44,135 nucleotides of DNA from Candidatus Hermodarchaeota archaeon (GTDB lineage: Archaea; Asgardarchaeota; Hermodarchaeia; Hermodarchaeales; Hermodarchaeaceae), in contig JAEOTB010000066.1 in assembly GCA_016840065.1 (NCBI GenBank), positions 1-44,135 of the forward strand, given 5' to 3'. Shown one piece after another: positions 25,847-43,952 of the stretch. The notes below the pieces were generated by a model, which worked only from the letters and a program-made list of their open reading frames with translations, was not told the origin of the DNA and ran no database searches. The first letter of the stretch is position 1. Each line of letters starts with the position of its first letter. Made by a program: the position numbers and the translations under genes.

Positions 25847-26161
25847 TTGAGTCCAAGACCAAGAGTAAGAAGGCGAAGAATCCGGCGACGGGTCAGGCGT
25901 AGGACTCGAAGACGTGTCCGCAGACACTTCAGACGAGTTCGAAGAGGCGCCTACTGGCTTTTTGCACCAGTCGCTGGCGCACCTTGGCGGCTACACCGCA
26001 GACATGTGATCATCATCGAGCGGGAAGCCGGTAAACCCATTGATGAGCTGAGCGAAGAAGAACTAGAAGAACTCCTAGAACAGCTAGGTATAAGCAAAGA
26101 AGATCTCGAAGACGAAGACGAAGAAGCTCTTGACGAAGAGGATGAAGAAGAAGACGAATAG
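25847..26161 (+). CDS. Small bipolar protein with Arg-rich N-terminus and Asp/Glu-rich C-terminus
   Basis: GGGGAGGT SD before TTG; the first ~33 aa are mostly Arg; central IEREAGKPIDELSEEEL; acidic tail. Confidence 0.8.
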   Translation: MSPRPRVRRRRIRRRVRRRTRRRVRRHFRRVRRGAYWLFAPVAGAPWRLHRRHVIIIEREAGKPIDELSEEELEELLEQLGISKEDLEDEDEEALDEEDEEEDE

Positions 26162-26280
26162 ACTCGGAAACCAATTAACACAGAAAGAATACTCCTCTCT
26201 CAATCGATGTGTAGGTTCTCGATTTAGTAGTGGCTTTTATATCTACTAAGTCGAAACCCACATCAAACCCACAAAGTAGG

Positions 26281-27024
26281 ATGGTTGTAGTTATGCCCCA
26301 ATGGTCCGAGTTGACCCAAGCTAGCTTTGAAAGAAAAGCTAGGCAAACCAAGGTCGCAGTAATGGTCACCTGTGCAGTCGAAACCCATGGCGACCATTTA
26401 CCCTTAGGTACTGACATGATTCTACCTACTTTTCTAGCCGAAAAAATCGCTCAAAAGACCAAAGCCTTGGTTCTTCCACCAATTCCCTTTGGGGAGAGCT
26501 GGTCATTTGATGTCTTCAAGGGTACAGTCTCCCTTCGACCTGAAACTCTCTTGATGGTCTATCGGGATGTGATGAAGGCGGTGTTTCGTCAAGGCTTCAA
26601 GTTCATTATAGCCCTCAACGGTCACGGAGGTAATTCACGACTTCTCCATCAGGCAGCAGAATACTCTACCGAAGACCACGACGGTACAGTTGTTATCGTA
26701 AACTGGTGGAGTGACTTGGCAGCAAGTGTGAGAGCCGAAATCTGTGAAACACCTGATGGCCATGCTGGCGAGGACGAAACCTCTGAAGTGCTCGCGGTGC
26801 GTCCTGACCTAGTTGATATGAAGGCAGCAAAGAGTGCACGCATCCGTACTACCTTTCGGATTGTGTCGGCTTCACGCAGAGAAGAGTTACTGCCCCGGGG
26901 GATCTATGGTGAACCCCAAAACGCAACAGCAGAAAAGGGGAGAGCCATTATGGAAAGAGCAGAGAAAGAACTGATAGAACTTGTACAACAACTTGAGAAA
27001 GGAAAACTTCCAATCTCCGAATGA
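26281..27024 (+). CDS. Creatininase / creatinine amidohydrolase family protein
   Basis: ETHGDHLPLGTD, NGHGGN and HAGEDETS metal-binding motifs. Start uncertain (26230-26293). Confidence 0.92.
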   Translation: MVVVMPQWSELTQASFERKARQTKVAVMVTCAVETHGDHLPLGTDMILPTFLAEKIAQKTKALVLPPIPFGESWSFDVFKGTVSLRPETLLMVYRDVMKAVFRQGFKFIIALNGHGGNSRLLHQAAEYSTEDHDGTVVIVNWWSDLAASVRAEICETPDGHAGEDETSEVLAVRPDLVDMKAAKSARIRTTFRIVSASRREELLPRGIYGEPQNATAEKGRAIMERAEKELIELVQQLEKGKLPISE

Positions 27025-27057
27025 TATTAATTGACTTTTCCATTCCCTTGAGAGCGG

Positions 27058-28563
27058 GTGAATGAAAGTATGCGGCGTAATTCTGTGGTTCTGATTGGTT
27101 GTGGCCGCATGGGTCGGGCAATAACCAAGATGCTTCTTCAAGAGGAGAAGCAGGAGAATCTGAGCATTGATATTTTCCTCTATGATCCATTCAAAGAAGC
27201 TGAAGAAACCTGTATGTTGGAGTGCCAGGAACTTTTCAGCAGGAAACTAGCTCATCCCCTTCGTGAGGTTCATACAGCATCTGACTGGGAAAAAATAGAT
27301 AGGCTAATGGTAAAGGCTCGGGGCGAGCAGGAACTCACACGAGAACTCTCAAAACTAATGAAAGCTCCTCTAGCTAGCGTCCAACCACGACTACTTCTTA
27401 ACGCCGCCACATATTTTGCTCATAGAATCTACATACCTCTAGCAATCGAACTGGGCTGTGACTACATCGACCTCGGACAGGGAATTCCTGCCCCAGAGGA
27501 ACGCCAGACATACGAAGCCGCCATCAGGAAATCCAAAACCCCTTCAAGGCTTGTACACGAATCAGGACTCGCACCAGGACTCGCAAACGTTCTAGCGGCT
27601 AACCTATACAATCTAGCTCTAGCACAGTCGTCGAACGGTCGGGTGCATTCAGTTCAGATGCGCTGTGGAGGCCTCCCACAAAACACCGAGAAATCTGGGG
27701 ATTTGCATTATGGTCCAGTTTTCTCTCCAGACGGGCTCTTATACGAATATGAAGCCGAGGCTCGTAGTATCAGGGATGGTGCGGTGGTTATAGGCACAAC
27801 CTTTGACAACCCGGACCATTGGGAGAATTCTACCCCCCAACACACACCCTATGGCTGTGCTCCATTCTTGGTTGAGACACCAACGATTAGAATGCTACTG
27901 GAGGACCGTATCCAATCCAAATTCCTTGAATACCAAGATGATCAAATGTACTTAACGGGGTTACAGGCTCGCCCAACAGCGGACGGCACCTCTCAGATGA
28001 CATCAGATGAACGCTACCGAGTAACCATAGACAATCTAGAATATAAGACATTTCGATTCAAACCTCATTTTGAGACTTGGTCTAGAATGCAAGAAGAAGG
28101 TACACTTGAGGTTCTCCTTGATCGTTGGCGACTAAAGATGGACGAACCCCACGTCTCAGGCTACCCCGATTTAGTGATGTTACGTGTCTGGGCTCAAACC
28201 AGTACAGACTCAGAACACCTCTCGACGGAGTTGCTTGTTCTCCACGACGATGTCGATGTAGACGAGTCTAACGCTTTCTCTGCGATGGCCCATTTGACCT
28301 GCTGGCCCACTGTTCTCCTAGCCGTCGCTCTCCTCCAATACCCGCCGGGAACTTCATCCTCCAAGCGTCCCAAACTCTTTCAGGCTCCCGAAGCGATGGT
28401 AGGGTCCCAGCGGAGTGTGGAGAGCCTGCTCGAAGAAGGTGGAATAACCCTCCCTTATGATATCCTAGATGGAAAAACGATGCTTGAAATGCTAGACGAT
28501 GACCACCGAATACCCCTTCGAGATGTTAGGTATCCGCCCCCATGGCGAACCTCGGATAACTAA
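27058..28563 (+). CDS. Saccharopine dehydrogenase / lysine 6-dehydrogenase-like oxidoreductase with insertions
   Basis: LIGCGRMG Rossmann motif, AIELGCDYIDLG, SGLAPGLAN, CGGLPQ, FSPDGLLYEY, YKTFRF. Confidence 0.85.
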   Translation: MNESMRRNSVVLIGCGRMGRAITKMLLQEEKQENLSIDIFLYDPFKEAEETCMLECQELFSRKLAHPLREVHTASDWEKIDRLMVKARGEQELTRELSKLMKAPLASVQPRLLLNAATYFAHRIYIPLAIELGCDYIDLGQGIPAPEERQTYEAAIRKSKTPSRLVHESGLAPGLANVLAANLYNLALAQSSNGRVHSVQMRCGGLPQNTEKSGDLHYGPVFSPDGLLYEYEAEARSIRDGAVVIGTTFDNPDHWENSTPQHTPYGCAPFLVETPTIRMLLEDRIQSKFLEYQDDQMYLTGLQARPTADGTSQMTSDERYRVTIDNLEYKTFRFKPHFETWSRMQEEGTLEVLLDRWRLKMDEPHVSGYPDLVMLRVWAQTSTDSEHLSTELLVLHDDVDVDESNAFSAMAHLTCWPTVLLAVALLQYPPGTSSSKRPKLFQAPEAMVGSQRSVESLLEEGGITLPYDILDGKTMLEMLDDDHRIPLRDVRYPPPWRTSDN

Positions 28564-28660
28564 CCAACAGGTAATATCTAGTATTGATTCTCAACTGTTT
28601 AATAGATAACCGATAATAGGTAACCAGCAAATAAACGCCTAGCAATGGAGCGAATGTTGA

Positions 28661-29179
28661 ATGTGTGGCATGTTTCCACCGGAGTTCGAATGTGATGCAG
28701 TGCTAAAAGATGGGTGTTGTTTGTACATCCGTCCCCTCAACTTCGACGAGTATGACCGGCTTGATGACCTATACCAGCGCTCATCAGAGGAATCGCTCCG
28801 AAAACGCTTTGGATGGACTGAAGCACGAGAATGGCTGCGATCAATCAAGGGCTGCTCAGAAGACTCCCAGATCTGCTTAATCGCGGAGAATTCGATAAAA
28901 GAAGAAGAAAAGGAAGTTGTGGGTGACTGCTGGTACTTCAAAGAGGTAGGTACAGGCAGCGCAGAAGTATCTATCCTGGTAAGAGACGACTTCCAGAACC
29001 GGGGACTCGGCACTCAGATGATGGAACAGCTTGTTAGAGTAGCCAAAGCTGAGGGAATCTACAGGCTCTTTGTACTCGTCAACATGACAAATCACCCAAT
29101 GTTAGCCATTGTTAAACGCCTCAGGTTCAGTTTTATCCACAGCGCCGACGCATCACACCTTTACCGACTCGACCTTTAA
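28661..29179 (+). CDS. GNAT acetyltransferase (Pat-like GNAT domain)
   Basis: LKDG...IRPL...SEESLRKRF...AEVSILVRDDFQNRGLGT...NHPML. Confidence 0.9.
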   Translation: MCGMFPPEFECDAVLKDGCCLYIRPLNFDEYDRLDDLYQRSSEESLRKRFGWTEAREWLRSIKGCSEDSQICLIAENSIKEEEKEVVGDCWYFKEVGTGSAEVSILVRDDFQNRGLGTQMMEQLVRVAKAEGIYRLFVLVNMTNHPMLAIVKRLRFSFIHSADASHLYRLDL

Positions 29180-29298
29180 CCAAACCTTCTCTACCTCAAT
29201 TAAAGAGATAATTCATAGAAGAAACAAAATTCCCTGGTCTTTGCTAGGGAAAAGAATTAAAGCAGAAATTTACATGCCTGAATATAGGAGGAACTCAA

Positions 29299-29856
29299 AT
29301 GTCTTGGGATCCGATTCCGCAAAAACCAACAGATACCGACATTTCACTCAAAGTCATCGTAGTAGGAGATGCTGCTGTGGGTAAGACTAGCCTCACTGGT
29401 CGTTTCGTGACCGGGGCCTTCAGCTCAGAATACAAAGCCACTATTGGCACTGATATCTTTCGAAAGCTGGTCAAGGTGGATGGAAGGCGGGTTGGCATGC
29501 TTGTATACGACACTGGCGGCCAAGAACGTTTCCGCAATCTAGTTGAGCGATATTTCATGGGAGCAATAGGCGCACTCTTGGTCTACGATGTTACAAACCG
29601 GGAGAGCTTTGAGAATCTTCCCACCTGGGGCAGACAGGTAGACCGTTTCGCCTCAAATGCCCTGAAAATCGTGTGCGGGAACAAGACCGACCTTGTCAAG
29701 CAGAGGACAGTAAGCAAGGATGAAGGGCGTGGTATGGGAATGCAGCTTGGCGCGTCCTTTCTTGAGACAAGTGCCAAAGACGGAAGCAACGTCGAGGAGT
29801 CCTTCACTGAAATCGCCAGATACGGAATCAACCGTGTCCGAGGACGAGTCACATAA
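29299..29856 (+). CDS. Rab-like small GTPase (Ras superfamily)
   Basis: G1 GDAAVGKT, G2 TIG, G3 DTGGQE, G4 NKTD, G5 ETSAK. RabF-like motifs IGTDI, RFRNL, YFMGA, LVYDVT. AGGAGG SD. Confidence 0.95.
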   Translation: MSWDPIPQKPTDTDISLKVIVVGDAAVGKTSLTGRFVTGAFSSEYKATIGTDIFRKLVKVDGRRVGMLVYDTGGQERFRNLVERYFMGAIGALLVYDVTNRESFENLPTWGRQVDRFASNALKIVCGNKTDLVKQRTVSKDEGRGMGMQLGASFLETSAKDGSNVEESFTEIARYGINRVRGRVT

Positions 29857-29876
29857 TAAAATGAAGAAATCTTTAG

Positions 29877-30500
29877 CTACCTTTGCTCGATAAGCCGTGC
29901 CCCACAATTATCACAGAACTCTGCTGGGTCCTCCAGATACATGCCGCATTCATTGCAATAGGCATAACGTTTTCGTTTTCTTCTCGGCGTGGCACGAACC
30001 TCTGTACCTGGATGTTTGGCTCGACGAACCCTTTTGGGCATAGCCTCGCCTCCCCGGTACTTGTAGAATGCGTTTTCAAGAATAGCGCTAAAGCCAGCTT
30101 TACGGCGCTTGAAGACCTCACGGGACTCATATGGCGACGACTGTTCCACTGTAATTACATACTCCCTTTGCGGCTCTCCAGAATCCCGGGGTGGATCCAC
30201 GACAAGGTGGACCTTTGCCCCTTTCCCTATGATTTTGATTACCCGATCATATCTCACATACTCGGTAATCGGGCCGCCTCGGAGGGATAGGATACCACCG
30301 GCTGATATATCGGTATCTGAGAAGAACGCGACCCCTCGATTTGTAATCACTAGTTCCCCGCTCTTTATGGAAGAGCGCTCGCCCTTCACAATGCGTTTCA
30401 CCTTAACGGCTGTCGTGTACAAGATTGTATCTTCAAGGGGAATCAGTACGCGGAGCTCAGGACACAGCTCCCTTTCAGGAATGTAGAAGTCACTGGGCAT
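29877..30500 (-). CDS. PH/GRAM-like domain protein with basic linker and C-terminal zinc ribbon
   Basis: EDTILY...GELVITNRGVAFF...VRYDRVIKI (PH-like); RRKRKR; CNECG...FCDNCG. Confidence 0.65.
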   Translation of the reverse strand: MPSDFYIPERELCPELRVLIPLEDTILYTTAVKVKRIVKGERSSIKSGELVITNRGVAFFSDTDISAGGILSLRGGPITEYVRYDRVIKIIGKGAKVHLVVDPPRDSGEPQREYVITVEQSSPYESREVFKRRKAGFSAILENAFYKYRGGEAMPKRVRRAKHPGTEVRATPRRKRKRYAYCNECGMYLEDPAEFCDNCGARLIEQR

Positions 30501-30873
30501 TTTCAGTCAACAAGACACTAATAATTCATCCCTAAAAAATTGCGGCTTTCGTGGAATTACAAGAGATCAATAAAACTTAGCAGTGCGTCCACTTAGGAAA
30601 TGGAGGTGAAGTAGGATGGAGAGGGGCAACAACAGCGTTGTCGCCCCAATCTGGAGATTGCAGTTAAACTAACTGCAGGTTAATCTTTCTAGAACAGGCT
30701 TAAAAAGACTAGCTCTCTGGAGGGCGAAAAACGGCGTTTTTCACTAGTGATACGACAATAAGTATAATTCCATGTCAAAGAGAAACTAATGAATCTCTTA
30801 ACATTCTCACTAACAGCTAGAATATCACTAACACCTAAAACCCTCTCCAGTCAGAATGAAAAAAGAGGAGGAC

Positions 30874-30892
30874 GGAGGCGTGTCAAGCCTCC
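30874..30892 (-). terminator. Hairpin followed by T-tract after the propeller gene
   Basis: GGAGGC-N7-GCCTCC, followed on the minus strand by GTCCTCCTCTTTTTTC. Confidence 0.5.
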
Positions 30893-30909
30893 AGGTTTGC
30901 CCGCCCCAG

Positions 30910-32625
30910 CTAGACTTTTTTGTATCTCCTTAAACAGAGAAAGAAAAGGAGGAACACTAGGGCAATGGCGGCGAGGAAGATGACCAAATGCCAGGGAAAG
31001 GCTGGTATCACAATGACAGTGAACACACCGGTACGGATGTTGCCAAAGGTGTCGTTGACCGAAACCTGCAGCCCATAACTTCCCACCTCTAGCGCAGACG
31101 TGTTGGTGATTACACCCTCATTGCTGATGGCAAAGTTGGTCGTATCGTTGAGCCACCAGGCATCCAGTGAGAGCCCTTCAGGGTCTGTGGCATCTAGATC
31201 ATAGAGGAAGGGTGTGCCCACGATTATCACCTGGTCTGTGGGTGTCATCACCCAGGTCGGCGGCAGGTTGTCATTGGCGACACGTATCAACCATCCATCC
31301 ATTGTAGTAGGACCTAGTGTGTTAAGTTGTCCAGTTAGGAGGAAGCCACCATCGCTGCAAGTGATGAGCGAAAAGCCCCATTCCTCGCCAGTACCACCAT
31401 AAGATTGATTCCACACATGGTTCCCACTGGCATCCGTCCGCAACAAGCATATGTCCGATTCCCCTGCCCCAAATCGATTGTCGCCGCCGCGACCCCTGCT
31501 CTCCTCCAGACTAACGGTCGGTGGTGGGCCGATGGCGTCCCAGTCGTAGTTCCCGGTGCCAGAGAGGGCGAAGCCGCCATCACTACACTCCACTAGATCC
31601 CACGCCTCATCGTATAGGGAGGAGACCTCGTGGGTCTGGTTCCACTGGTGATCACCATTAGCGGTGGTTCGCAGTAACCACATTCCCATTGAATATCCAA
31701 AACTAGCGTTATGGTGTATACCTGCAAGGGCGAAGCCGCCGCTGCTGCACTCAATGACTTCCATGCATTTGTAAGCCTGGTCAACAGCAGTGTACGACTT
31801 GTTCCAGAGCTGATTTCCGCCTGCATCCGTTCGTACCAGTATCCCATCATAAGAAGTAGGCATGAGAACGTCGCCACAAACCGCGAACCCTCCGCCACTA
31901 CACTCGACGATTGAATAGCCTGTATCCTCTAGTCCGTATCCAAAGGATTCATTCCACAAATGTTGACCTGTGGCATCAGTCCGAATCAGCCAAAGGTCTT
32001 GGCTACTGGTTTTTGCAGTAGTGGTGTAGCCAATGATGGCGAAGCCGCCACCGCTGCACTCTATCACTTGTAAACCTGTATCATGGCTACCGAGGTCACC
32101 GTCGAAGGTCTGGTTCCACTGTTGGTGACCAGTTACATTGGTGCGGATTAACAACACATCCTCCCCAGTGGGGACGGAATATGTGCGTCCTGTTATAATG
32201 TATCCACCGTCACTGCACTCAGCGAGAGACCATCCCTGCTGGTCATACGCACTACCCCAACTGTGATTCCACAGCTGGTTGCCATGAATGTCAGTCTTGA
32301 CCAGCCACACATCTTGTAGATTCCCAGGTAAGCTGAATGCACCAGTGAAGACGAAGCCGCCACTGCTACACTCCACCACATCAGATATAAAATCGAAGGA
32401 GCTAGACCCAAAGGTTTTGTTCCAACGAGTCGGGAGCATTGCTTGACGCGAAGAATAATCAGTCTTGGTCGATAATCGCTCCTGGTAGTGGACAAGCGAG
32501 TTGGGTAGGGTGGTCCGAAAACCTGCGGTGGGTAGAACCACGACCAGGATAAGCAAGAGTCCTAGAACCGGATATCGTGATTTCAAATTCATGAGCCCCA
32601 AATATCCCATTAGTGGGGATGACAT
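30910..32625 (-). CDS. Cell-surface 7-bladed beta-propeller protein with cadherin-like Ig domain and C-terminal TM anchor
   Basis: Seven WN.(T/S)...(E/T)CSxGG(F/Y) repeats; PPTWVMTPTDQ...DATDPEG Ig domain; IPAFP-TM-RRYKK. The true start may be the Met near 32592. Confidence 0.85.
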   Translation of the reverse strand: MSSPLMGYLGLMNLKSRYPVLGLLLILVVVLPTAGFRTTLPNSLVHYQERLSTKTDYSSRQAMLPTRWNKTFGSSSFDFISDVVECSSGGFVFTGAFSLPGNLQDVWLVKTDIHGNQLWNHSWGSAYDQQGWSLAECSDGGYIITGRTYSVPTGEDVLLIRTNVTGHQQWNQTFDGDLGSHDTGLQVIECSGGGFAIIGYTTTAKTSSQDLWLIRTDATGQHLWNESFGYGLEDTGYSIVECSGGGFAVCGDVLMPTSYDGILVRTDAGGNQLWNKSYTAVDQAYKCMEVIECSSGGFALAGIHHNASFGYSMGMWLLRTTANGDHQWNQTHEVSSLYDEAWDLVECSDGGFALSGTGNYDWDAIGPPPTVSLEESRGRGGDNRFGAGESDICLLRTDASGNHVWNQSYGGTGEEWGFSLITCSDGGFLLTGQLNTLGPTTMDGWLIRVANDNLPPTWVMTPTDQVIIVGTPFLYDLDATDPEGLSLDAWWLNDTTNFAISNEGVITNTSALEVGSYGLQVSVNDTFGNIRTGVFTVIVIPAFPWHLVIFLAAIALVFLLFFLCLRRYKKV

Positions 32626-32743
32626 CCCCTTAACCCTGTTAAAAGTCTTTAGAGTTTAGAAGATTGAAATCCAGCTGAATGAACTCTTCCTATCATAACC
32701 TTTTTCTTACCACAAAACAAGCTAGAGAGTGGATTGTGATTCT

Positions 32744-33157
32744 ATGCCGCTTGAACCCGGACTAAAACCCGAAGATGTAGCGACACGTTTCTATCAGGCA
32801 ATCATGGACAACGATTACCCAGCTTTTCTTGAATGCTTCACACAATGGCACAAAGAACGAGAAAAGGGGCGACCAAAGCTCTATTGGGGCGTTGGCCGCA
32901 AACTCGTAGACGAGAAAGGCTACACCTATCGAATTCATAAGCCTGGCTTTCTGGAGAAAGCACGGCTTATGGCACGGGCTGCTGATATGATAGCTGACGG
33001 TCGTGACCCGCGTCGTCCCCAGCCCAAGGGTCAAAAGAAGATCTTCTTCCAGCGATACTTGCGCACAGGCGAAAAAACGGGCTATCCTATGCCAATCATT
33101 TTGGTCAAGGATCCAGATACAAATGGAGAATGGCGAGTAGAGCTAGCGACAATCTAA
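32744..33157 (+). CDS. Hypothetical protein, possibly NTF2-like (DUF4878-like)
   Basis: KPEDVATRFYQAIMDNDY...IILVKD...GEWRV pattern. Confidence 0.6.
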   Translation: MPLEPGLKPEDVATRFYQAIMDNDYPAFLECFTQWHKEREKGRPKLYWGVGRKLVDEKGYTYRIHKPGFLEKARLMARAADMIADGRDPRRPQPKGQKKIFFQRYLRTGEKTGYPMPIILVKDPDTNGEWRVELATI

Positions 33158-33278
33158 TGTCTGGGCTAGGCTCTTTCTTCGGCAGACTTTATCATAGGGG
33201 ATAGTCTATACTATTAGCCTGTTTCCTATGGTTTCCTCCGCAAGAATTTTAACCGACTTGCAGACAAACCATCTTACG

Positions 33279-34118
33279 TTGATTCGACTCGGCACCAGCG
33301 GATGGAAATACAAGGACTGGATCGGAACCTTCTACCCCTCAAGGCACCATCACTTCCATTACTATCGTACTATATTCGACACAGCCGAGATCAACAGCAC
33401 CTTCTACACATATCCCAGCGTGAAATTGGTAGAAGCCCTTGTACGCAACGCTTCAAAGGATTTCATTTTCACTGCTAAAATTCCACAGGAGATTACCCAT
33501 GAACTCCGCCTCGACCTAGAGGCAGGCGCTGACCAGCGTCTCGGATACTTCTTGAAGGCTATGTCCCCCCTCCAAGAAGCGGGAAGGCTGGGTCCCTTAC
33601 TACTCCAGTTGCCGCCCTCCCTTCACTTTGACCCAGAAAGACTAAAGGCCTTCCTAGAAATTGTACCAAAAAAGTGGTTGATGGCGGTCGAGTTCAGGCA
33701 CCGCTCCTGGCTTCGACAAGAAACCTTCAGTATCCTGCGGCGTCACCAGGCTGCTTATTGTATTGTTGATGCTCCAGTAATGCCACCTAGGGTTGAGGTG
33801 ACCGCCCCCTTCTCCTACATTAGATTTCATGGCCACGGTGAAAAGCTCATGTACTATTACCTCTACTACGAGGATGAGCTAGAAGAATGGGTGCCTAAGG
33901 TTCTTGAGCTAGAGGAAAAAAGCCCAGAAGGGGTCTATGGGTATTTTAACAACCATTGGTTCGGATTTGCTGCACGTAATTGCGTGGAGATGCAGGACCT
34001 CCTCGGTCTTGGATCAAGAATGCCGCCCCATATCAGGCAACGACTACGGCGTATTACAGACCAGCGTATCAAAGTGAAACCTAGCCAGCAGACAGACCTT
34101 GACTCCTTTGCTGACTAA
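33279..34118 (+). CDS. DUF72 (YecE-like) TIM-barrel protein
   Basis: IRLGTSGWKYKDW, EINSTFY, LLQLPPS, AVEFRHRSW, YIRFHG, YFNN. Confidence 0.93.
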   Translation: MIRLGTSGWKYKDWIGTFYPSRHHHFHYYRTIFDTAEINSTFYTYPSVKLVEALVRNASKDFIFTAKIPQEITHELRLDLEAGADQRLGYFLKAMSPLQEAGRLGPLLLQLPPSLHFDPERLKAFLEIVPKKWLMAVEFRHRSWLRQETFSILRRHQAAYCIVDAPVMPPRVEVTAPFSYIRFHGHGEKLMYYYLYYEDELEEWVPKVLELEEKSPEGVYGYFNNHWFGFAARNCVEMQDLLGLGSRMPPHIRQRLRRITDQRIKVKPSQQTDLDSFAD

Positions 34119-34126
34119 CAAGAATG

Positions 34127-34675
34127 CTAGCCATTAACAGCGGCGAGTCTTTGTTGACAACTTGAACAGAAGGTTTCTGGCTTTTGGTCACATTCTTCAA
34201 GGGAATTCGAAAAGACCATCACACAATCATTGTCGCAGTGGTCCAAGCCTAGGACATGACCGAGTTCGTGGAAGGTCACCTTCTTGATTCGCTCAAAAGC
34301 CAGGTCTGAACTCGTTGGCTTCTGGCAGAGCCGGGGGATTGCTACAACCGCGTTGCCTCCCTTCTCAGCCACGCCGAAAATGAAGTTAAGCTCCTTAGTG
34401 TAGAGGTCCTGGTTCACAATTCCAAGCCCACAGCACTGGGCGGCAATTTGGGTTGAAATGACCCAGAGAAAGGGTGACGCCTTATACTGTGACCTAACAG
34501 GGTCATAGGAGTCAAAGGGAACCGGCAGCCGCACCGGATGCATCTTTACCGGTGAAAAGAATTGGGAGAATCTGCTTGTTATAGTCATTGTCAGTTCCAA
34601 AAGGAGGTCCGTGGAAACCCCCTTAAAGCCATAAACATGGAGCCTGGTCATCATCATTTCCCAAAGAATGCCCAA
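34127..34675 (-). CDS. amzA: Archaemetzincin (M54 Zn-metallopeptidase)
   Basis: DLY...LNFIFG, HELGHVLGLDHC...CVMVFSNS...DQK...FCSSC. Confidence 0.93.
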   Translation of the reverse strand: MGILWEMMMTRLHVYGFKGVSTDLLLELTMTITSRFSQFFSPVKMHPVRLPVPFDSYDPVRSQYKASPFLWVISTQIAAQCCGLGIVNQDLYTKELNFIFGVAEKGGNAVVAIPRLCQKPTSSDLAFERIKKVTFHELGHVLGLDHCDNDCVMVFSNSLEECDQKPETFCSSCQQRLAAVNG

Positions 34676-34748: not shown

Positions 34749-34845
34749 GGAAGGGGCTTCAGACTAGTTTAGGTTCAGAAATCGGGCTATCTCTGAAGCA
34801 TGTAACCAGAGGGTGCCACTGTCAAATTATTTGCTAGGTGTGTTC

Positions 34846-36402
34846 ATGTCTGGCTCACTAGAAACCCTGGGTAAGATGTTGTATGGAAAGTATGTGCGCA
34901 AATTCCTTTGGGGACTTGAGAACCCCCAAGAAGCACAGGAAGAATGCCTGAGACGACTCCTGACGCGGAACCAAGGCACAGTCTATGGGCGACGGCATAA
35001 ATTCAGTAAGATTAGTTCCCCTGAAGCCTACCAAGAACAGGTTCCTTTGGCCACATTTGATGATCTAAAACCATACTTTGAATCGATAAGTCAGGGCGCC
35101 GAGAACGTGATGTACCCAGATAAAACCTACTGCTTCATGATCACTAGTGGAACATCCGGCGACCAGAAGTATGTCCCCATCTCAAAATACGGACTCAAGG
35201 AATTCAGGGACATCAACAAGATAGCCATTGCCAGGATATTTACTATTGCAGATAGGCGTTATTACAATGGGCATACATTCAATTTCTCCGCACCCTATGT
35301 GCTTCCTGAATACAAATACGGGAAATACGACGTTGGGTATCTAACCGGGCTTACGTGTGCCAAGGAAACAGGGCAGGACAGCGCAATCTCATCACAAGGG
35401 AGGATGTGGCCCAGCGATGAAGTCCTCAACATGACCGATTGGGTGGAGAAGAGCTACCGCATGGCGCTCGAAATCATCCCTTTGGATATCGTAGCTGTGC
35501 ATGGTCTACCCAGTAACCTCTGCACTTTCTTCCGTAACCTAGTCGATGACATCACGCCACAATTGCTGAGTGATTCCCAGATTTCCTCCAAGATAAAAGA
35601 CCGTGTAAGGAGTTCAATGCATCGAGGGAAACTAGACTTGGGGAAACTGTGGCCAAATATGGACATAGTTGTATATGGCGGCATTCATATCGACCCCTAT
35701 CTTCCCTTCCTGGAAAGCTACTTCGCCCCAATAACACCAGTGGCGCTCTACATGGCAACCGAAGGATACATTGGTCTGGAGTGGTATCTGGGCGAAGGAT
35801 TAAGTCCCGTCCTCAATCGCACCTTTCTCGAGTTCATTCCCGCTGATGAACCTGATGCCCGACCTCACCTCGTGTCGGAGCTCAAAACAGGTAAAATCTA
35901 TTCCCCAGTCATGACAACTCCAACAGGCTTCTACCGATACGAGGTAGGCGACCACATCGTCTTTACAAAACTTGATCCCCTACTTTTCAAGATCATTGGT
36001 CGGGCGAAGACCGTAGCGAGTCTTGTGGGTGAACGGCTCCAGGAGTCGCAGCTGAATGATTCGATTATAGCAGCGTGTAAGGCAACTGGGGCAACCATTC
36101 ATTCTTTCATGGCGGTTCCAATGGTCACCCGTGAGCGAACAGCCTATGACATATTTATCGAGTTCCGAAGAGAGCCCAAAGACCTCGCTGAGTTCGAAGC
36201 ACGTTTTGACGAAGAACTACGGAAACTAAATCACAGCTACAACTATGAACGAAAAGCAGGAGTAATCCATCATGCAAGGTTCATCAAATTACCTCCCAAG
36301 ACCCTCGAGAAGATACCCTTTGAAAGAACCGGAGTAGGCGGAGCAGGGAAGATTCCCGTCATAGGGACTCCAGAGCTTGCCGAGAAACTCCGAAACCTCT
36401 AG
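34846..36402 (+). CDS. GH3-family acyl-adenylate-forming acyl-amido synthetase (1)
   Basis: Motif I TSGTSG, motif II YMATEG, motif III YRYEVGD; N-terminal RNQGTVYGRRH...VPL. Confidence 0.92.
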   Translation: MSGSLETLGKMLYGKYVRKFLWGLENPQEAQEECLRRLLTRNQGTVYGRRHKFSKISSPEAYQEQVPLATFDDLKPYFESISQGAENVMYPDKTYCFMITSGTSGDQKYVPISKYGLKEFRDINKIAIARIFTIADRRYYNGHTFNFSAPYVLPEYKYGKYDVGYLTGLTCAKETGQDSAISSQGRMWPSDEVLNMTDWVEKSYRMALEIIPLDIVAVHGLPSNLCTFFRNLVDDITPQLLSDSQISSKIKDRVRSSMHRGKLDLGKLWPNMDIVVYGGIHIDPYLPFLESYFAPITPVALYMATEGYIGLEWYLGEGLSPVLNRTFLEFIPADEPDARPHLVSELKTGKIYSPVMTTPTGFYRYEVGDHIVFTKLDPLLFKIIGRAKTVASLVGERLQESQLNDSIIAACKATGATIHSFMAVPMVTRERTAYDIFIEFRREPKDLAEFEARFDEELRKLNHSYNYERKAGVIHHARFIKLPPKTLEKIPFERTGVGGAGKIPVIGTPELAEKLRNL

Positions 36403-36559: not shown

Positions 36560-38119
36560 ATGGTCGGTCTTCTACAAATTCTTTCGAAACTTATGTATGG
36601 TCGAAAGGTGAGAAAATTCCTACGGGGGCTTCAGAGACCCCAGGAAGCACAGGAAAACTGTCTTAGCCGAATCATGAAACGGAACCAAGGCACAGTCTAC
36701 GGGCGCCGCCACAAATTCAGCAAAATCAGTTCCCCTGAAAAATACCAAGAACAGGTTCCGCTGACCACCTACGATGACTTGAAGCCTTATTACGAAGATA
36801 TTGGTCAAGGCGCAGAGAATGTCTTGTACCCTGACCCAACCTACCAGTTCATGATTACCTCCGGTACAACTGGTCGCCAGAAGTACATTCCCCTCTCATC
36901 ATATTCCCTAGAAGAAAACAGGGACATCAACATGCTGATCATGGCTAGAATCTCATCTTTCACTAAAGGGCTCCAGGGGCTTGATAGCCATATATTCAGC
37001 TTTTCTGCTCCAGCTATCATCCCTGAATACTCATACGGAAAGTACCAATGTGGTTACCTGACAGGGATTATAGGTGCCTCCGGTGCTGCCCAAGGTGGTC
37101 TTTTCTCCCGGTTGGGCAGAATCTGGCCAAGCGATGAAGTTCTTAACATGATTGACTGGAAGGAGAAAAGCTACAGACTAGCCCTTGAAATCGTACCATT
37201 GAAGATTACTACGATGATAGGATTACCCAGCAACTTATGCTCCTTCTTCCGAACCCTAGTTCAAGACATCGCGCCCAGAATGCTGGGTGACAAAGACGTA
37301 CCATCCGAAACAAAGGATAGGCTTCGTAGAGCCATGCACAGAGGAGAACTCCACATCGGGAAACTATGGCCATATATGACCTACATAATATATGGCGGAA
37401 TTCACATTGACCCCTACATGCCCTTTTTTGATAGCTATTTCAGAGGCCTTCACCCAATTTCAGTTTATCAGGCGACTGAAGGCTATCTGGGCTTTGAATG
37501 GAATTTTGGTGAAGGAATCAATCTCTCGCTAAACACAGTCTTTTTCGAGTTCATCCCCGCTGATGAACCAGAAGCGCGACCTAGGCTCATATCTGAGGTC
37601 AGAAAGGGTGTTGTCTACCGTCCGATAATAACCACCTCAGGAGGCTTCTACCGTTATGACCTTGGGGATCACATTGTCTTCACCAAACTGAATCCTCCCA
37701 CAATGAGAATTGTTGGACGAGCAGGTACTGTTGCTAGCCTCGTTGGTGAGCGACTCCAGGAGGAGCAACTAGTTAATGCGCTAAGGAGTGCCTGCACCAT
37801 GACAGGTGCAACCATCAGTGCGTTCATGGCCGTTCCAATTGTGACCTTGGAGAGAACAGCCTACGACATATACGTCGAGTTCACAGAGGAACCCAGAGAC
37901 CTTGTAAGGTTTGAAGCAGTCTTCGACGAAGAGCTCCGCAAACTTAACCACAGCTATAATTATGAGCGGAGAGCCGAAGTGATTGCTCCTGCCCGGATCA
38001 TACAGCTGACCCCTAGAACCCTTGAGAAAATTCCCTTTGCAAAACATGGGGTCGGAGGAGCGGGTAAGGTTCCAGCAATAGGAACCCCAGAACTCGTACA
38101 GCAGTTGAAGCTCCCCTAA
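36560..38119 (+). CDS. GH3-family acyl-amido synthetase (2), tandem paralogue
   Basis: TSGTTG, YQATEG, YRYDLGD; highly similar to GH3-1. Confidence 0.92.
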   Translation: MVGLLQILSKLMYGRKVRKFLRGLQRPQEAQENCLSRIMKRNQGTVYGRRHKFSKISSPEKYQEQVPLTTYDDLKPYYEDIGQGAENVLYPDPTYQFMITSGTTGRQKYIPLSSYSLEENRDINMLIMARISSFTKGLQGLDSHIFSFSAPAIIPEYSYGKYQCGYLTGIIGASGAAQGGLFSRLGRIWPSDEVLNMIDWKEKSYRLALEIVPLKITTMIGLPSNLCSFFRTLVQDIAPRMLGDKDVPSETKDRLRRAMHRGELHIGKLWPYMTYIIYGGIHIDPYMPFFDSYFRGLHPISVYQATEGYLGFEWNFGEGINLSLNTVFFEFIPADEPEARPRLISEVRKGVVYRPIITTSGGFYRYDLGDHIVFTKLNPPTMRIVGRAGTVASLVGERLQEEQLVNALRSACTMTGATISAFMAVPIVTLERTAYDIYVEFTEEPRDLVRFEAVFDEELRKLNHSYNYERRAEVIAPARIIQLTPRTLEKIPFAKHGVGGAGKVPAIGTPELVQQLKLP

Positions 38120-38214: not shown

Positions 38215-39693
38215 TTGACTGAACTAGATATCGTTTTCATCCATCCGCCTATCCGCTTCCAGAGGAAATGGACCAGGTTCAAGCACTCAGAGATTCTCCA
38301 AATCCCAATGGGCATGCCGGCCTTAGCAGACCTTTGCCTTCAGCAAGGCTACAAAACCAGAATACTCGACATCCCCTTGGAGCTCAACCTCGACGTCAAG
38401 TGGAATCCTAACAACTACCTGAGGAACCATCCAGCTAAGGTCTACGCCATTGACTTACACTGGTTCGCAACCTCCTACGGAGCAATACAAACCGCTAAAC
38501 TATGTAAAGCATCCAACCCCCAAGCAAGGGTAATCCTTGGTGGCAGCACAGCTACGGTATATGCCCATGAGATTCTTGAAACCCATAAGGTCGTAGATGC
38601 CATTATACGAGGGGAAGCAGAAGAGCCCATAATCAAGTATCTTCAAACCATCGAAGGGAACCCTGGTAAACTCCGAAGAGTCCCCAACCTCAGCTTCCGT
38701 GAAAGAGGTGGCAAGGTCAGGGAGAACCCAATAACCTATGTCGCAAGGGAAGAGGACATCAACAGGCTCAACTTCACAAACCTCACAATGATGGAACACT
38801 ACAAGGAATACCTTAGTTTCCTGGAGCGATACATGCCCTTCGGAATTATGGTCGCCAGGGGCTGCCCATTCAACTGTCCTTTCTGCACCGGAGGTCGCGA
38901 CTCCCTTGCCCATTACTGGAAACGTCAGAAAACTACTCTACGAGACCCAGCCCTCATCGCAGAGGATATCGCACACCTTGCGGAAAACAAACTCACCAAG
39001 GAGATCTACTTTGGTCACGGCATCTACCCCTCAACCCAGAAGTACTGGCTCAGCATATTCAAGGAGGTTCGAGACAGGGGAGCCGACATTGGAGCTCACC
39101 ACGAGGTCTGGCGACTCCCCGTTTCACCCCAAGTTCTCAAAGCCTACAAGAGGACCTTCAATCCTTCCTGCACATCAATCGGCTACTCTCTCCAAGCTGC
39201 CACTCCAAAAGTGCGTCGTAGCCTTGGTAAAGCTCTCAATGATCCCACGCATAACTTCACCAAGGCCCAAATGGATGGTTTCCTCAAGACCTGCAATGAC
39301 CTTCGAATGCCATTACGCCTTTGGCTCACCTTCGGGAGCCCTTTCCAAGGCTTCACCGACATGTTCCACACTCTCTGGTTACTCGCTACACAGGCACGCT
39401 TCAGGCTAGCATGGCGCAACTGCACCCAACTTCTTGCCCAGCCAATAACACCAAGTCCAGGGTCACCCGTTTCCCGAGATCCCGAGAAGTTTGGGGTCAA
39501 GCTCAAGCTCCATTCCTTCGCGGATTACTACAAACTACACAAGAAGACCCTCAACAGGTTCTTCAGTCTTGACTTCCCCATAGCCTACCAGACGAAGCGG
39601 CTTTCTAGCGCCCAGCAGCGACTCTGGAACACCCTTGCCAGTATGTTGGCACTTCCCACTCATTTTCTCAATTTTTATCCCGAGAAAAATTAA
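38215..39693 (+). CDS. Cobalamin-binding radical SAM protein
   Basis: N-terminal B12-binding domain (IPMG...LA; ARVILGG...AT; VDAIIRGEAE) and ARGCPFNCPFC (CxxxCxxC). Confidence 0.92.
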   Translation: MTELDIVFIHPPIRFQRKWTRFKHSEILQIPMGMPALADLCLQQGYKTRILDIPLELNLDVKWNPNNYLRNHPAKVYAIDLHWFATSYGAIQTAKLCKASNPQARVILGGSTATVYAHEILETHKVVDAIIRGEAEEPIIKYLQTIEGNPGKLRRVPNLSFRERGGKVRENPITYVAREEDINRLNFTNLTMMEHYKEYLSFLERYMPFGIMVARGCPFNCPFCTGGRDSLAHYWKRQKTTLRDPALIAEDIAHLAENKLTKEIYFGHGIYPSTQKYWLSIFKEVRDRGADIGAHHEVWRLPVSPQVLKAYKRTFNPSCTSIGYSLQAATPKVRRSLGKALNDPTHNFTKAQMDGFLKTCNDLRMPLRLWLTFGSPFQGFTDMFHTLWLLATQARFRLAWRNCTQLLAQPITPSPGSPVSRDPEKFGVKLKLHSFADYYKLHKKTLNRFFSLDFPIAYQTKRLSSAQQRLWNTLASMLALPTHFLNFYPEKN

Positions 39694-39867
39694 CTCCCAA
39701 TATTCTACCTGCTCGAGTCTTTCTATGTGTAGATTATAAAAAGTATGTATCTCGGTTCGACCCACAGCGGTGGCACGCTAGCGCGAATCAACATTGATAG
39801 AATTAACGATGCCCAACAACGACAGAGCCTAACGCGTGATAGAAAAGCTCGAATTCTCTGATCAACA

Positions 39868-40317: not shown

Positions 40318-40543
40318 ACCTGTCCTTCACACACGGTCTTTTTAACTTTTCACGGTCTCGACGATCTGATAGGCATATCTCAACCTTGACAATGGAATAC
40401 TTAGTTATCCAGATTATGAAATAACGATTGTATTCTGCCAAATATTGTCACAATAACAAAAAATTGAGTTGTCTTCAAACGTTTATAAGCTATTAGCGTA
40501 GACTGATGTTCTTGTATACAAATTCCTGGGATACTGTGAAGAA

Positions 40544-41137
40544 GTGATGTCGATGAACTTGATTGTGGATGTGAGAAGTAGAGAGGAATACTATAGAAGT
40601 CATGTGAAAGGCGCATTGAACATTCCCCTGTTCGATTTGGAGTATTACATTGCCTTCTTGAAAGATAAGGACGTTTTATTTTACTGCAACAGTGGGCACA
40701 GGTCGAAATTGGCTGTTGAATACGTCACCAAGAAAGGGATTAAAGCCACTATGATTCCAACAGAAGAACTTGCTAAATACGAGAAAGAGGGGAAGCCAAT
40801 AATATGCGCCTTAAATTATCTCTCGGTGAAGCCCGGATGTGAAGCGGAGTTCGAAGAAATGGTTAAAGAGCTGTGCCATGTAACCAATGGAATGAAAGGC
40901 TTTCTCGGGTCAAAAATATTTAAGATCTCAACAATTTCCTATGGGGGAACTGGACTTCAAGGAGCATACGAGGATATCGATGTCAGGCCAAGCAAATATG
41001 TGATGTTGACCTACTGGACAAGCAAAGAAGCCCATGAGGAATTCCATAAGGAAAAGGAGATTCTCAAAGGATTCATGGATATGATGAAATACGTCTCGAT
41101 AATGCCCTACGAAGAATATGGCGAAATCATGAGATAG
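40544..41137 (+). CDS. Rhodanese domain fused to an ABM/sulfur-oxygenase-reductase-like domain
   Basis: IVDVRSREEY...HVKGALNIP...FYCNSGHRS (rhodanese with active Cys); then LCHVT...GFLG...YGG...TYW...HEEFH...PYE. Confidence 0.85.
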   Translation: MMSMNLIVDVRSREEYYRSHVKGALNIPLFDLEYYIAFLKDKDVLFYCNSGHRSKLAVEYVTKKGIKATMIPTEELAKYEKEGKPIICALNYLSVKPGCEAEFEEMVKELCHVTNGMKGFLGSKIFKISTISYGGTGLQGAYEDIDVRPSKYVMLTYWTSKEAHEEFHKEKEILKGFMDMMKYVSIMPYEEYGEIMR

Positions 41138-41326
41138 CTAGAACCCTTCACTTCTTTGTCCTGAGGAATTGAATCATTGTTTTAGATTCATATGCGATTG
41201 GGGAACTGAATGCTTGCAACTAGGGGCAAAAAGCATGGTGGAGGCCAGTGAACAAGAAACCCTCGCAAAAATCCAGACCTCCTACACAATTACAATTATA
41301 AGCCCTGGCTTGGGTTCGCTGGGGTT

Positions 41327-43138: not shown

Positions 43139-43253
43139 ATCATCAGCTCCCAGGCGATAAGAGTCACGAACCAGAGCATAGACTAATAGTCCTGATTGGA
43201 AATGCACTATCCTTTAATCCAGTCCTCACACGCTTCTAGTGGGAGGCACTCTG

Positions 43254-43952
43254 ATGGTAGAAGTTGTCGAGATAGCTGATGGCGTATACGCCTTTGCGGA
43301 GTTCCTGAAAGAGAACGATATCTCTGTCTCCTGTTTCCTAGTCCAGGATGAAAAACAGGTAATCATCGAGACAGGAACCCTGAGTCTAGCAAGACCCTTC
43401 CTGAAACGAATGTCCGAACTGGGTCCTCTGGACAAGACATCTCATATCTTCGTCACTCATGAGCACCAGGACCATTTCGGTGGTTTACCCGAGTTCATCT
43501 CCGAAGCCTTCAGCGCAAAAGTCGTCGCACACAGGACAATAACTGCTCAACTAGCCTTTTCTGGTATCGTGGGGCGAAACCTGCTTGTAGAGGGAGGAGA
43601 AGCCATCAAGCTAGGGAAAAGAACCATTCACATCTACTATGCTCCTATCGAGACCAAAGGGAATATCATCTTTCTCCTTGAACCTGATGGAATCCTCTTC
43701 ACTGGTGATTACTTCGGTCAACTCACCAAGGAGACTTGGACTCCATACACACGAATGCCGACGAACGTGTTCATTCATAACATCATCGCCTTCCATCAGG
43801 CCCTCGGATACTTCCAGAAAGACTTCATCAAGTACTTCTCTCCCCTGAAGAGAAAGTCTCTACAGTTCATTGCACCCTCCCACGGATCAATGATTAAAGA
43901 GTCCATTTCAGAGATATTCGAAAAAGTGATTAAGGCAAAGCTAGAGAAATGA
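43254..43952 (+). CDS. MBL-fold metallo-protein (FprA/ODP-like, no flavodoxin domain)
   Basis: IIETG, THEHQDH, LFTGD, APSHG. GGGAGG SD before ATG at 43254. Confidence 0.85.
   Translation: MVEVVEIADGVYAFAEFLKENDISVSCFLVQDEKQVIIETGTLSLARPFLKRMSELGPLDKTSHIFVTHEHQDHFGGLPEFISEAFSAKVVAHRTITAQLAFSGIVGRNLLVEGGEAIKLGKRTIHIYYAPIETKGNIIFLLEPDGILFTGDYFGQLTKETWTPYTRMPTNVFIHNIIAFHQALGYFQKDFIKYFSPLKRKSLQFIAPSHGSMIKESISEIFEKVIKAKLEK

Follow-up and report, generated by a model that had tools for sequence, protein, structure and literature searches.

A rhodanese fused to a single sulfur oxygenase reductase-like domain in archaea of anoxic sediments

The 44,135-nucleotide stretch of DNA analysed here (contig JAEOTB010000066.1 of a Candidatus Hermodarchaeota archaeon; hereafter the window) carries a gene for a two-domain protein, in which an N-terminal rhodanese is fused to a single domain that, judged by sequence, is a true homologue of sulfur oxygenase reductase (SOR). 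The protein belongs to the rhodanese and ABM superfamilies and not to the SOR family as defined, because it has a single half, no CxxC pair and no cage-forming segments and scores under the curated thresholds, yet it carries the essential active-site residues of SOR. All SORs known so far are large enzymes of aerobic sulfur oxidisers, assembled as cages of 24 subunits, and how SOR arose within the ABM superfamily has lacked an explanation. The fusion protein would provide a minimal soluble system, with a built-in sulfur donor, for testing the iron-plus-cysteine site by itself. In addition, the occurrence of the family in Bathyarchaeia, Hadarchaeota, Thermoplasmatota and Asgard archaea, often in rubrerythrin/superoxide-reductase operons, suggests a link of sulfur chemistry to oxygen defence in sediment microbes, which is missing from the current annotation of family members. 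In the databases, members are labelled ‘rhodanese-like domain-containing protein’ or, for some entries of the Joint Genome Institute (JGI), ‘rhodanese-related sulfurtransferase/heme-degrading monooxygenase HmoA’. We found no description of a rhodanese–SOR-like fusion in the literature on SOR with rhodanese, ABM, Bathyarchaeota or Asgard.

Domain organisation of the fusion protein

The gene is a single open frame on the forward strand (40544..41137), of 197 codons when read from the GTG at 40544, the point from which residues are numbered throughout. The true start is probably the ATG at 40553, because nearly all homologues are 194 residues long and begin with MNLIVDV. The N-terminal domain matches Pfam Rhodanese (PF00581) over residues 6–67 (E = 7e-12; 46.2 bits for a cut-off of 22.2), has the thiosulfate sulfurtransferase PspE as its top NCBIfam match, and presents the active-site loop C48-N-S-G-H-R53, a C-x4-R loop of the six-residue, sulfurtransferase type. 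The C-terminal domain matches Pfam ABM (PF03992) over residues 87–173 (E = 1.4e-8; 35.2 bits for a cut-off of 23.1). The Pfam search found no Lactamase_B domain in the protein. An earlier note, made from the letters of the window, had described a rhodanese with an active-site cysteine fused to half of a SOR; this description holds, as the motifs it quoted are present, both Pfam domains are detected, and the active-site Cys48 occurs in 130 of 130 full-length representatives of the family.

Sequence relationship to SOR

Among solved proteins, SOR is the nearest sequence relative of the C-terminal domain, which in turn is the closest known single-domain relative of SOR. Searching all PDB chains with the whole protein (phmmer) returned the SOR 9rdn at E = 2e-6 and the Acidianus SORs at E of about 1.5e-4. 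With a profile of the C-terminal domain, made from 19 family members, 11 distinct SOR sequences rank first (E = 2.7e-8 to 1e-5), the next PDB match being the ABM protein TT1380 (E = 0.009), and the heme-degrading proteins HmoB and MhuD follow at E = 0.5–0.9 over 40 residues. A profile limited to the last 58 columns likewise matches mainly SORs in the PDB, with the protein CT0912 (3gn6) at rank 4 (E = 0.06). The protein scores 17.9 bits against the NCBIfam SOR equivalog NF047630, the threshold of which is 400, with residues 101–193 placed on model positions 21–117; two divergent family members, P0122 (34.2 bits) and P0140 (27.6 bits), exceed the Pfam SOR cut-off of 25. A survey of 400 genomes from the phylum of the window gave no full-length SOR match above the family cut-off and two sub-threshold matches with E = 0.005–0.008.

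The alignment places five residues of the C-terminal domain on the active site of SOR. In PDB numbering, C111, H164, E165, H168 and E190 are aligned by HMMER with Cys31, His86, Glu87, His90 and Glu114, respectively, and hhalign agrees for C111, H164, H168 and E190. C111 sits within a C-x-x-T-x4-G-F-x-G segment that is aligned with SOR Cys31. The spacings of 53 residues from the cysteine to the first histidine and of 22 residues from His168 to Glu190, which the earlier note had given with its assignment of counterparts to the persulfide cysteine and the three iron ligands, were reproduced. When 13 diverse members are aligned jointly with four SOR N-halves, 12 columns are invariant, namely N91, C111, T114, F120, G122, G135, T156, W158, H164, H168, P188 and E190.

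Two further elements of SOR, both described as absent at the outset, are absent from the joint alignment and from the family searches. The C101/C104 pair has no counterpart, since G-F-M-D-M occupies these positions in the window protein and no cysteine stands there in any member aligned, and the second half of SOR is lacking, the protein having one domain of ~110 residues and no relative with a second half being found in the near, longer-protein or exhaustive searches. In SOR, H86, H90, E114 and Cys31 are each required for activity, and the C101/C104 double mutant retains some activity (PMC9529111). Because that study found those four residues to be needed and C101/C104 to be dispensable, the set retained in the fusion protein is exactly that of the essential residues of SOR.

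We note that the single domain appears to be an intermediate sequence that links the two SOR halves, because it matches each half better than the halves match each other. With the SOR side of the comparison being shallow (eight Sulfolobales SORs from Thermoproteota genomes, with an effective number of sequences, Neff, below 2), hhalign aligns the family domain with the SOR N-half at a probability of 84% (E = 7e-6, 108 columns, all four residues in register) and with the SOR C-half at 96% (E = 4e-9, 83 columns), versus 52% (E = 1.4e-4, 34 columns) for the N-half against the C-half. The idea that the protein is an evolutionary link between ABM-fold proteins and SOR, raised in the earlier note, thereby gains support.

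Predicted structure and dimer

An AlphaFold model, computed from a 40-sequence alignment, has a mean predicted local distance difference test score (pLDDT) of 89.1 and a predicted template modelling score (pTM) of 0.76, and consists of a rhodanese fold (residues 1–83) and a beta-alpha-beta-beta-alpha-beta domain (residues 87–193). In the second domain, C111 is located at the end of helix 1, H164 on helix 2, H168 one turn on and just past the end of that helix, and E190 on strand 4; by analogy with the ABM topology, the four residues would surround one pocket. By VIA-align, the rhodanese matches the Alr3790 rhodanese (Z = 13.4), E. coli PspE (Z = 12.8) and the rhodanese of 5ve4 (Z = 11.0).

For the C-terminal domain, the top structural match is 3gz7 (Z = 14.1, root-mean-square deviation (rmsd) 1.8, 97 residues aligned), and SnoaB, LsrG, RslO4, YgiN and unnamed ABM proteins lie at Z = 14.1–12.8. 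The SOR matches, both to the C-half, are 2cb2 (Z = 11.8, rmsd 2.0, 113 residues aligned) and 6qpa (Z = 10.8, 111 residues aligned), and the heme-degrading IsdG (Z = 10.9) and MhuD (Z = 10.8) are also placed under the generic ABM proteins. Only the SOR alignments span the whole domain including the long, glycine-rich beta2–beta3 loop, with 111–113 residues versus 92–101 for the ABM proteins. The fold is a weak discriminator, because ABM proteins, IsdG and SOR share one fold and the ranking follows the compactness of the domain. The modelled structure thus confirms the superfamily and does not single out SOR.

A homodimer of the SOR-like domain was modelled with a score of 0.74, the best of 3 controls being 0.00; at least 95% of contacts are common to the runs, and the pLDDT of the partner is at least 87. 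In the calibration of the score, 20 of 30 proteins solved as one-chain pairs reach the mark, as does 1 of 23 single-chain proteins. These counts hold only roughly here, as, unlike in the calibration, an alignment of our own was used and Fe was included, and the pass may reflect likeness to solved ABM dimers. In the model, strand 4 packs against strand 2 of the partner, as in the canonical ABM barrel. The model supports, and does not show, a homodimer barrel; such a pair would correspond to a single SOR monomer, except that it would have two active sites.

Conservation and extent of the family

A word-index search found 219 clusters at 70–89% identity, all with the same two-domain architecture. 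An exhaustive search with the C-terminal domain among 1.8 billion representatives added two more full-length clusters (53% and 44% identical) and fragments, and among longer proteins the only relatives recovered were copies with an N-terminal extension, the most distant at 38% identity. No other fusion partner, and no DNA-binding or signalling output domain, was found in any of 130 members. Two kinds of candidate were set aside: P0131 (1674 residues), which is an immunoglobulin-repeat false positive, and P0125, P0127 and P0128, in which only the last ~60 residues stand behind unrelated N-termini and which look like fragmentary or chimeric gene calls rather than other architectures.

In the 130 full-length representatives, R53 of the rhodanese loop is invariant, as are H164 and H168; C111 and E190 are each conserved in 129, the odd one for E190 being an alignment gap and that for C111 a tyrosine in P0036, attributable either to an error in sequencing or to a natural variant that has lost function. 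The Cys/His/His/Glu set is also kept in the most divergent members, at 38–45% identity, so the doubt expressed in advance, that homologues might not conserve it, does not apply. C88 and E191 are invariant in close relatives and do not belong to the core, because they are replaced in the members from Hadarchaeota and Thermoplasmatota. The ratio of nonsynonymous to synonymous substitution rates (dN/dS) between the window gene and its closest relative, at locus L046, is 0.095, and the family is under strong purifying selection.

Hosts and gene neighbourhoods

The family occurs in anaerobic sediment archaea and some bacteria. Named genome records place 12 loci in Bathyarchaeia, 3 in Hadarchaeota, 3 in Thermoplasmatota, 1 in uncultured Thermococci and 2 in metagenome-assembled genomes (MAGs) of Asgard archaea (Hermodarchaeum and Thorarchaeota), and one divergent member lies on a contig with bacterial-looking genes. 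The distribution is patchy: the gene is carried by 5 of 301 sampled Bathyarchaeia species and by 3 of 19 genomes of the window's own class, and the remaining 381 genomes sampled from the window's phylum gave no match to it. The Bathyarchaeota MAG JAPUUO01 holds two copies (L017 and L032:8001-8590), of which the L032 copy shows only a short open frame (8282-8608) and may be disrupted.

Neighbourhoods were clustered for 27 loci, and further loci were viewed separately. Two recurring themes are seen, sulfur-compound transport on the one hand and defence against oxygen and reactive oxygen species on the other. As to the first, two half-size genes of the YeeE/YedE type (PF04143, sulfur transport) adjoin the family gene in 5 loci of Hadarchaeota and Thermoplasmatota, and a ZIP metal transporter gene lies directly upstream in 4 loci of the same group; at L028, both YeeE/YedE halves, ZIP and the family gene are co-directional. 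As to the second, rubrerythrin adjoins the family gene at L004, L005, L013 and L017, the latter two being Bathyarchaeia loci, and in the divergent subgroup three of four contexts (L004, L005 and L059) are classic oxygen-defence operons of anaerobes. The gene order is desulfoferrodoxin, peroxiredoxin (with a 4-bp overlap), family gene, rubrerythrin and MarR at L004; rubrerythrin, family gene and desulfoferrodoxin at L005; and peroxiredoxin, ferredoxin, rubrerythrin, desulfoferrodoxin, ferritin, two rubrerythrins, glutaredoxin and family gene at L059. Genes for MsrA, MsrB and thioredoxin are found near the family gene at L001.

In 8 Bathyarchaeia loci, a gene for a DUF202-like membrane protein of ~130 residues follows the family gene on the same strand, 0–38 bp downstream. 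Other recurrent or notable neighbours encode a nitroreductase, a PNPOx-like flavoprotein, MsrA/MsrB, TspO and heliorhodopsin. At L046–L048, the loci of the closest relatives, the second gene downstream, behind the DUF202-like gene, encodes heliorhodopsin, and a TspO/MBR gene is found near the fusion gene at L016, L022 and L023.

Proposed function and alternatives

We propose that the fusion protein is an iron-dependent persulfide oxygenase of anaerobes, a two-domain sulfane-sulfur enzyme with a protective role, a proposal that we regard as evenly poised between right and wrong. In this mechanism, C48 of the rhodanese would accept sulfane sulfur, with thiosulfate, polysulfide or a low-molecular-weight persulfide as the donor, and hand it on to C111. 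A mononuclear Fe(II), putatively bound by H164, H168 and E190, would use O2 to oxidise the C111-bound persulfide to sulfite, comparable to the oxygenase half-reaction of SOR. The enzyme would protect strict anaerobes on exposure of sulfidic cells to oxygen: together with rubrerythrin, superoxide reductase and peroxiredoxin, it would consume O2 and/or remove reactive sulfane sulfur, and it would have no part in dissimilatory sulfur oxidation. We offer as tentative, and on the doubtful side, the wider claim that the family is the living single-domain form of the protein that preceded the duplication in SOR, working in strict anaerobes as a rhodanese-fed, iron-dependent persulfide oxygenase. If this wider claim were true, the family would be a previously unrecognised part of the oxygen-defence toolkit of anaerobes, in which sulfane sulfur serves as a reductant for O2, alongside rubrerythrin and superoxide reductase.

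Several observations weigh against a persulfide oxygenase. The hosts are anaerobes from anoxic sediments, whereas the chemistry of SOR needs O2. The gene neighbourhoods are heterogeneous, and most Bathyarchaeia loci have only the DUF202-like membrane protein in common. The Pfam SOR model (PF07682) gives 19.7 bits, under its cut-off of 25 bits, whereas ABM passes its own. In the structure searches, by Foldseek and in both VIA-align runs, SOR ranks below generic ABM proteins, most of which are cofactor-free, and part of the seemingly catalytic conservation is superfamily heritage, as N91 together with the spacing W158-x9-H168 is also a general ABM/IsdG pattern. One member, P0036, encoded at L001 on a closed Bathyarchaeota chromosome (CP070709.1), has a tyrosine at position 111 (ELYRIT). 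Finally, the copies from Hadarchaeota, Thermoplasmatota and Thermococci (L025–L031) have a rhodanese loop that is one residue longer, C-G-P-R-G-K-R (C-x5-R). This loop pattern is the usual one in phosphatases and arsenate reductases of the Cdc25/Acr2 type. The earlier note had interpreted the protein as a minimal Fe-dependent sulfane-sulfur enzyme fed by its rhodanese, and had named best structural matches among ABM proteins as one outcome that would speak against it. Such matches are what was found, at Z = 14.1–12 versus 11.8 and 10.8 for SOR, by a criterion that discriminates weakly. The interpretation therefore stands in part, backed by the SOR homology, the residue conservation and the evolutionary link, and is not favoured by the structural ranking.

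If the chemistry did not involve O2, the protein could instead be a sulfur enzyme or relay for assimilation or disproportionation, which we consider unlikely. YeeE/YedE would import thiosulfate or another sulfur compound, the rhodanese would cleave it, and the SOR-like domain would convert or pass on the sulfane sulfur, without O2, for example by releasing sulfide for biosynthesis or by disproportionation. The split YeeE/YedE genes, which at L028 are co-directional with ZIP, fit this scheme, as do the best NCBIfam match of the rhodanese, a thiosulfate sulfurtransferase, and the anoxic habitat of the hosts. It leaves the oxidative-stress operons of L004, L005 and L059 unexplained, and the YeeE neighbours are confined to one subgroup. 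Nor do DsrE/TusA or sulfite-handling genes recur near the family gene in the loci examined. To our knowledge, the known SORs are inactive without O2.

The structural ranking raises the further alternative of an ordinary ABM domain, devoid of an iron site, that happens to be fused to a rhodanese. Such a domain could turn over an organic substrate as a cofactor-free oxygenase or isomerase, or could bind or degrade heme in the manner of IsdG or HmoA, with the two histidines and the glutamate in acid–base, heme-ligand or structural roles. Besides the Z scores, the Pfam ABM match over its cut-off and the HmoA label given by JGI to some members, it could draw on N91, W158 and H168, which fit the Asn/Trp/His spacing of IsdG-type enzymes, and on TspO/MBR, a porphyrin-binding family, near the gene in 3 loci. 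The sequence comparison points elsewhere, with E = 0.5–0.9 over 40 residues for HmoB and MhuD against 3e-8 for SOR, and the near-invariant C111, E190 and H164, the last located one helical turn before H168, match SOR and not IsdG-type enzymes. A role in sulfur chemistry is also suggested by the sulfurtransferase partner and by the YeeE genes nearby. We judge this alternative to be rather improbable.

Very unlikely, in our view, is a non-catalytic sensor or carrier, which would bind iron or persulfide and either report the oxygen or sulfide state or store and pass on sulfane sulfur, for example to the DUF202-like protein. The close coupling to the DUF202-like gene in 8 Bathyarchaeia loci, of which a remnant is left in the window, the heliorhodopsin gene two genes downstream in the closest relatives, and the MarR-type gene in the L004 operon would suit such a function, but the 130 members have neither a DNA-binding or signalling output domain nor another fusion partner, and a complete SOR catalytic set exceeds what a sensor needs.

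An acquired gene in the Hermodarchaeota genome

The window gene is a recently acquired, intact copy in this Asgard genome. A patch of 770 bp, which comprises the gene with 48 bp upstream of the ATG and 137 bp downstream (Table 1), is 85% identical in DNA to L046, a metagenomic contig of the Bathyarchaeia-type group that encodes P0003, a protein 89% identical to the window protein. The window protein is 78–89% identical to members of the Bathyarchaeia-type group versus 53% to the copy in a genome of its own family. The contig itself is native, because the flanks of the gene are syntenic with three same-genus genomes at 73–79% DNA identity; in one of these (G109), synteny ends at 39776 and restarts at 41271, with a different gene between. 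A search of 3 same-genus genomes, at 80–81% completeness, did not detect the gene. The patch ends within a remnant of the DUF202-like gene that is intact downstream of the family gene in 8 loci. We consider it highly improbable that the gene, in this one genome, came along silently with a recently inserted piece of DNA and is of no use to its host: the foreign patch, the mere stub of the usual downstream partner, the adjoining repeat element and the failure to detect the gene in the same-genus genomes searched fit this view, and against it stand the intact reading frame with every conserved residue and the dN/dS of 0.095 versus the closest relative, although most of that divergence may predate the transfer.

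Table 1. Coordinates of the fusion gene, its domains and candidate active-site codons, and of the elements that border it in the window
Feature	Position	Strand	Description or basis
Rhodanese/SOR-like fusion gene	40553..41137	+	Likely ATG start at 40553, 194 aa; homologues mostly 194 aa, beginning MNLIVDV
Rhodanese domain, residues 4–83	40553..40792	+	Pfam PF00581; catalytic Cys48 codon 40685-40687
Single SOR-like ABM/DABB domain, residues 87–197, beta-alpha-beta-beta-alpha-beta	40802..41134	+	Profile, hhalign and AlphaFold model
Candidate persulfide Cys111	codon 40874-40876	+	Alignment to SOR Cys31
Candidate iron ligand His164	41033-41035	+	Alignment to SOR His86
Candidate iron ligand His168	41045-41047	+	Alignment to SOR His90
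Candidate iron ligand Glu190	41111-41113	+	Alignment to SOR Glu114
Horizontally acquired patch	40505..41274	+	Gene with 48 bp upstream of the ATG and 137 bp downstream; blastn versus L046, synteny break
Remnant of DUF202-like membrane-protein gene, first 15 codons	41235..41279	+	tblastn E = 3e-5 over 20 residues
AT-rich repeat element of ~55 bp, just upstream of the patch	40402..40458	.	Single-copy here; multi-copy (87–92% identical) in sister-genus genomes

The AT-rich repeat element just upstream of the patch has the core ATCCAGATTATG.AATAAC.ATTGTATTCTGCCAAA.AGTGTCACAATAAC, and its copies in the sister genus continue into a longer repeat that has a direct repeat inside it. The element resembles a miniature inverted-repeat transposable element or the end of an insertion sequence. 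A function of this element as a shared operator was rejected, as it is single-copy here and in the relatives lies in unrelated contexts within the longer repeat.

Because the gene is a foreign patch, its native neighbours are uninformative on function; they include GH3-type ligases, a B12/radical-SAM enzyme, a serine beta-lactamase-family protein and an ODP-type metallo-beta-lactamase, and no sulfur genes were found among the native window neighbours checked. Two tandem GH3-family genes of the acyl-acid amido synthetase type (34813-36402 and 36560-38119) are followed by a gene for a B12-binding radical-SAM protein (38215-39693), an unusual trio for an Asgard archaeon. The ODP-family gene (43239-43952), of the oxygen-binding di-iron protein type with a metallo-beta-lactamase fold, is located 2 kb downstream of the fusion gene; it belongs to the native DNA of the genus and stands outside the patch. 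Further upstream, ~8 kb of the window (26000-34400) have a second copy on another contig of the same assembly (C89) at 78–81% DNA identity. This copy may stem from a segmental duplication, from another strain or from contamination, which amounts to 5% in the bin.

Comparison with known systems

The closest known system is SOR itself (PF07682, NF047630; Acidianus ambivalens 2cb2, Sulfurisphaera tokodaii 6m35 and Halothiobacillus neapolitanus 6qpa), with which the fusion protein shares a homologous DABB domain. In addition to the putative persulfide cysteine, the three candidate iron ligands and the second-sphere Glu87 (E165 here), the two have N9, T34, the GF.G motif, T78, W80 and P112 (SOR numbering) in common. 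The differences are equally clear. SOR consists of two tandem halves in ~308 residues, whereas the fusion protein has one domain of ~110 residues, lacks the C101/C104 CxxC and is joined to a rhodanese. SOR is built as a hollow, 24-subunit sphere with chimney channels (PMC9529111). The segments after SOR residue 120 that build this sphere and its chimneys have no counterpart in the fusion protein, for which only a dimer was modelled, and the hosts are anaerobes of mesophilic sediments, unlike the aerobic (thermo)acidophiles that harbour SOR.

The ABM family (PF03992: ActVA-Orf6, SnoaB, LsrG, YgiN and IsdG/MhuD) has the same fold and the best structural scores (Z = 14.1–12). However, those enzymes are cofactor-free or heme-binding, have neither the Cys plus H-x3-H...E set nor the long, glycine-rich beta2–beta3 loop, and are far weaker in sequence similarity than SOR. 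A third relative is CT0912 of Chlorobaculum tepidum (3gn6; PF22087, CT0912-like_C), in which the C-terminal repeat W-x5-H-E-N-S-H ... P-V-E aligns to W158/H164/H168/E190; divergent members of our family, with H-D/E-x-S-H, weakly match PF22087. CT0912 is a structural-genomics protein of two ferredoxin-like repeats that has no rhodanese, and the match is weak (E = 0.06). By its sequence, this repeat of a sulfur bacterium may hold a further iron site of the SOR type that has so far escaped recognition.

On the side of the rhodanese, the N-terminal domain resembles PspE, GlpE and TSTD1, with 32% identity and Z = 12.8 to PspE and a similar C-x4-R loop. Those proteins stand alone, whereas here the rhodanese is always fused to the SOR-like domain. 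The proposed principle of the fusion, a rhodanese joined to a mononuclear non-heme iron oxygenase that converts persulfide to sulfite for the detoxification of sulfide or reactive sulfur, is shared with the persulfide dioxygenase–rhodanese fusions (PRF, such as 5ve4, and the CstB type). YeeE/YedE-type transporters also accompany those systems. Their oxygenase, however, has the metallo-beta-lactamase fold of the ETHE1 type, which is unrelated to the ABM/SOR fold, the order of the domains is reversed, and only the rhodanese part matches 5ve4. Any functional likeness between the two kinds of fusion would be one of analogy, not of homology.

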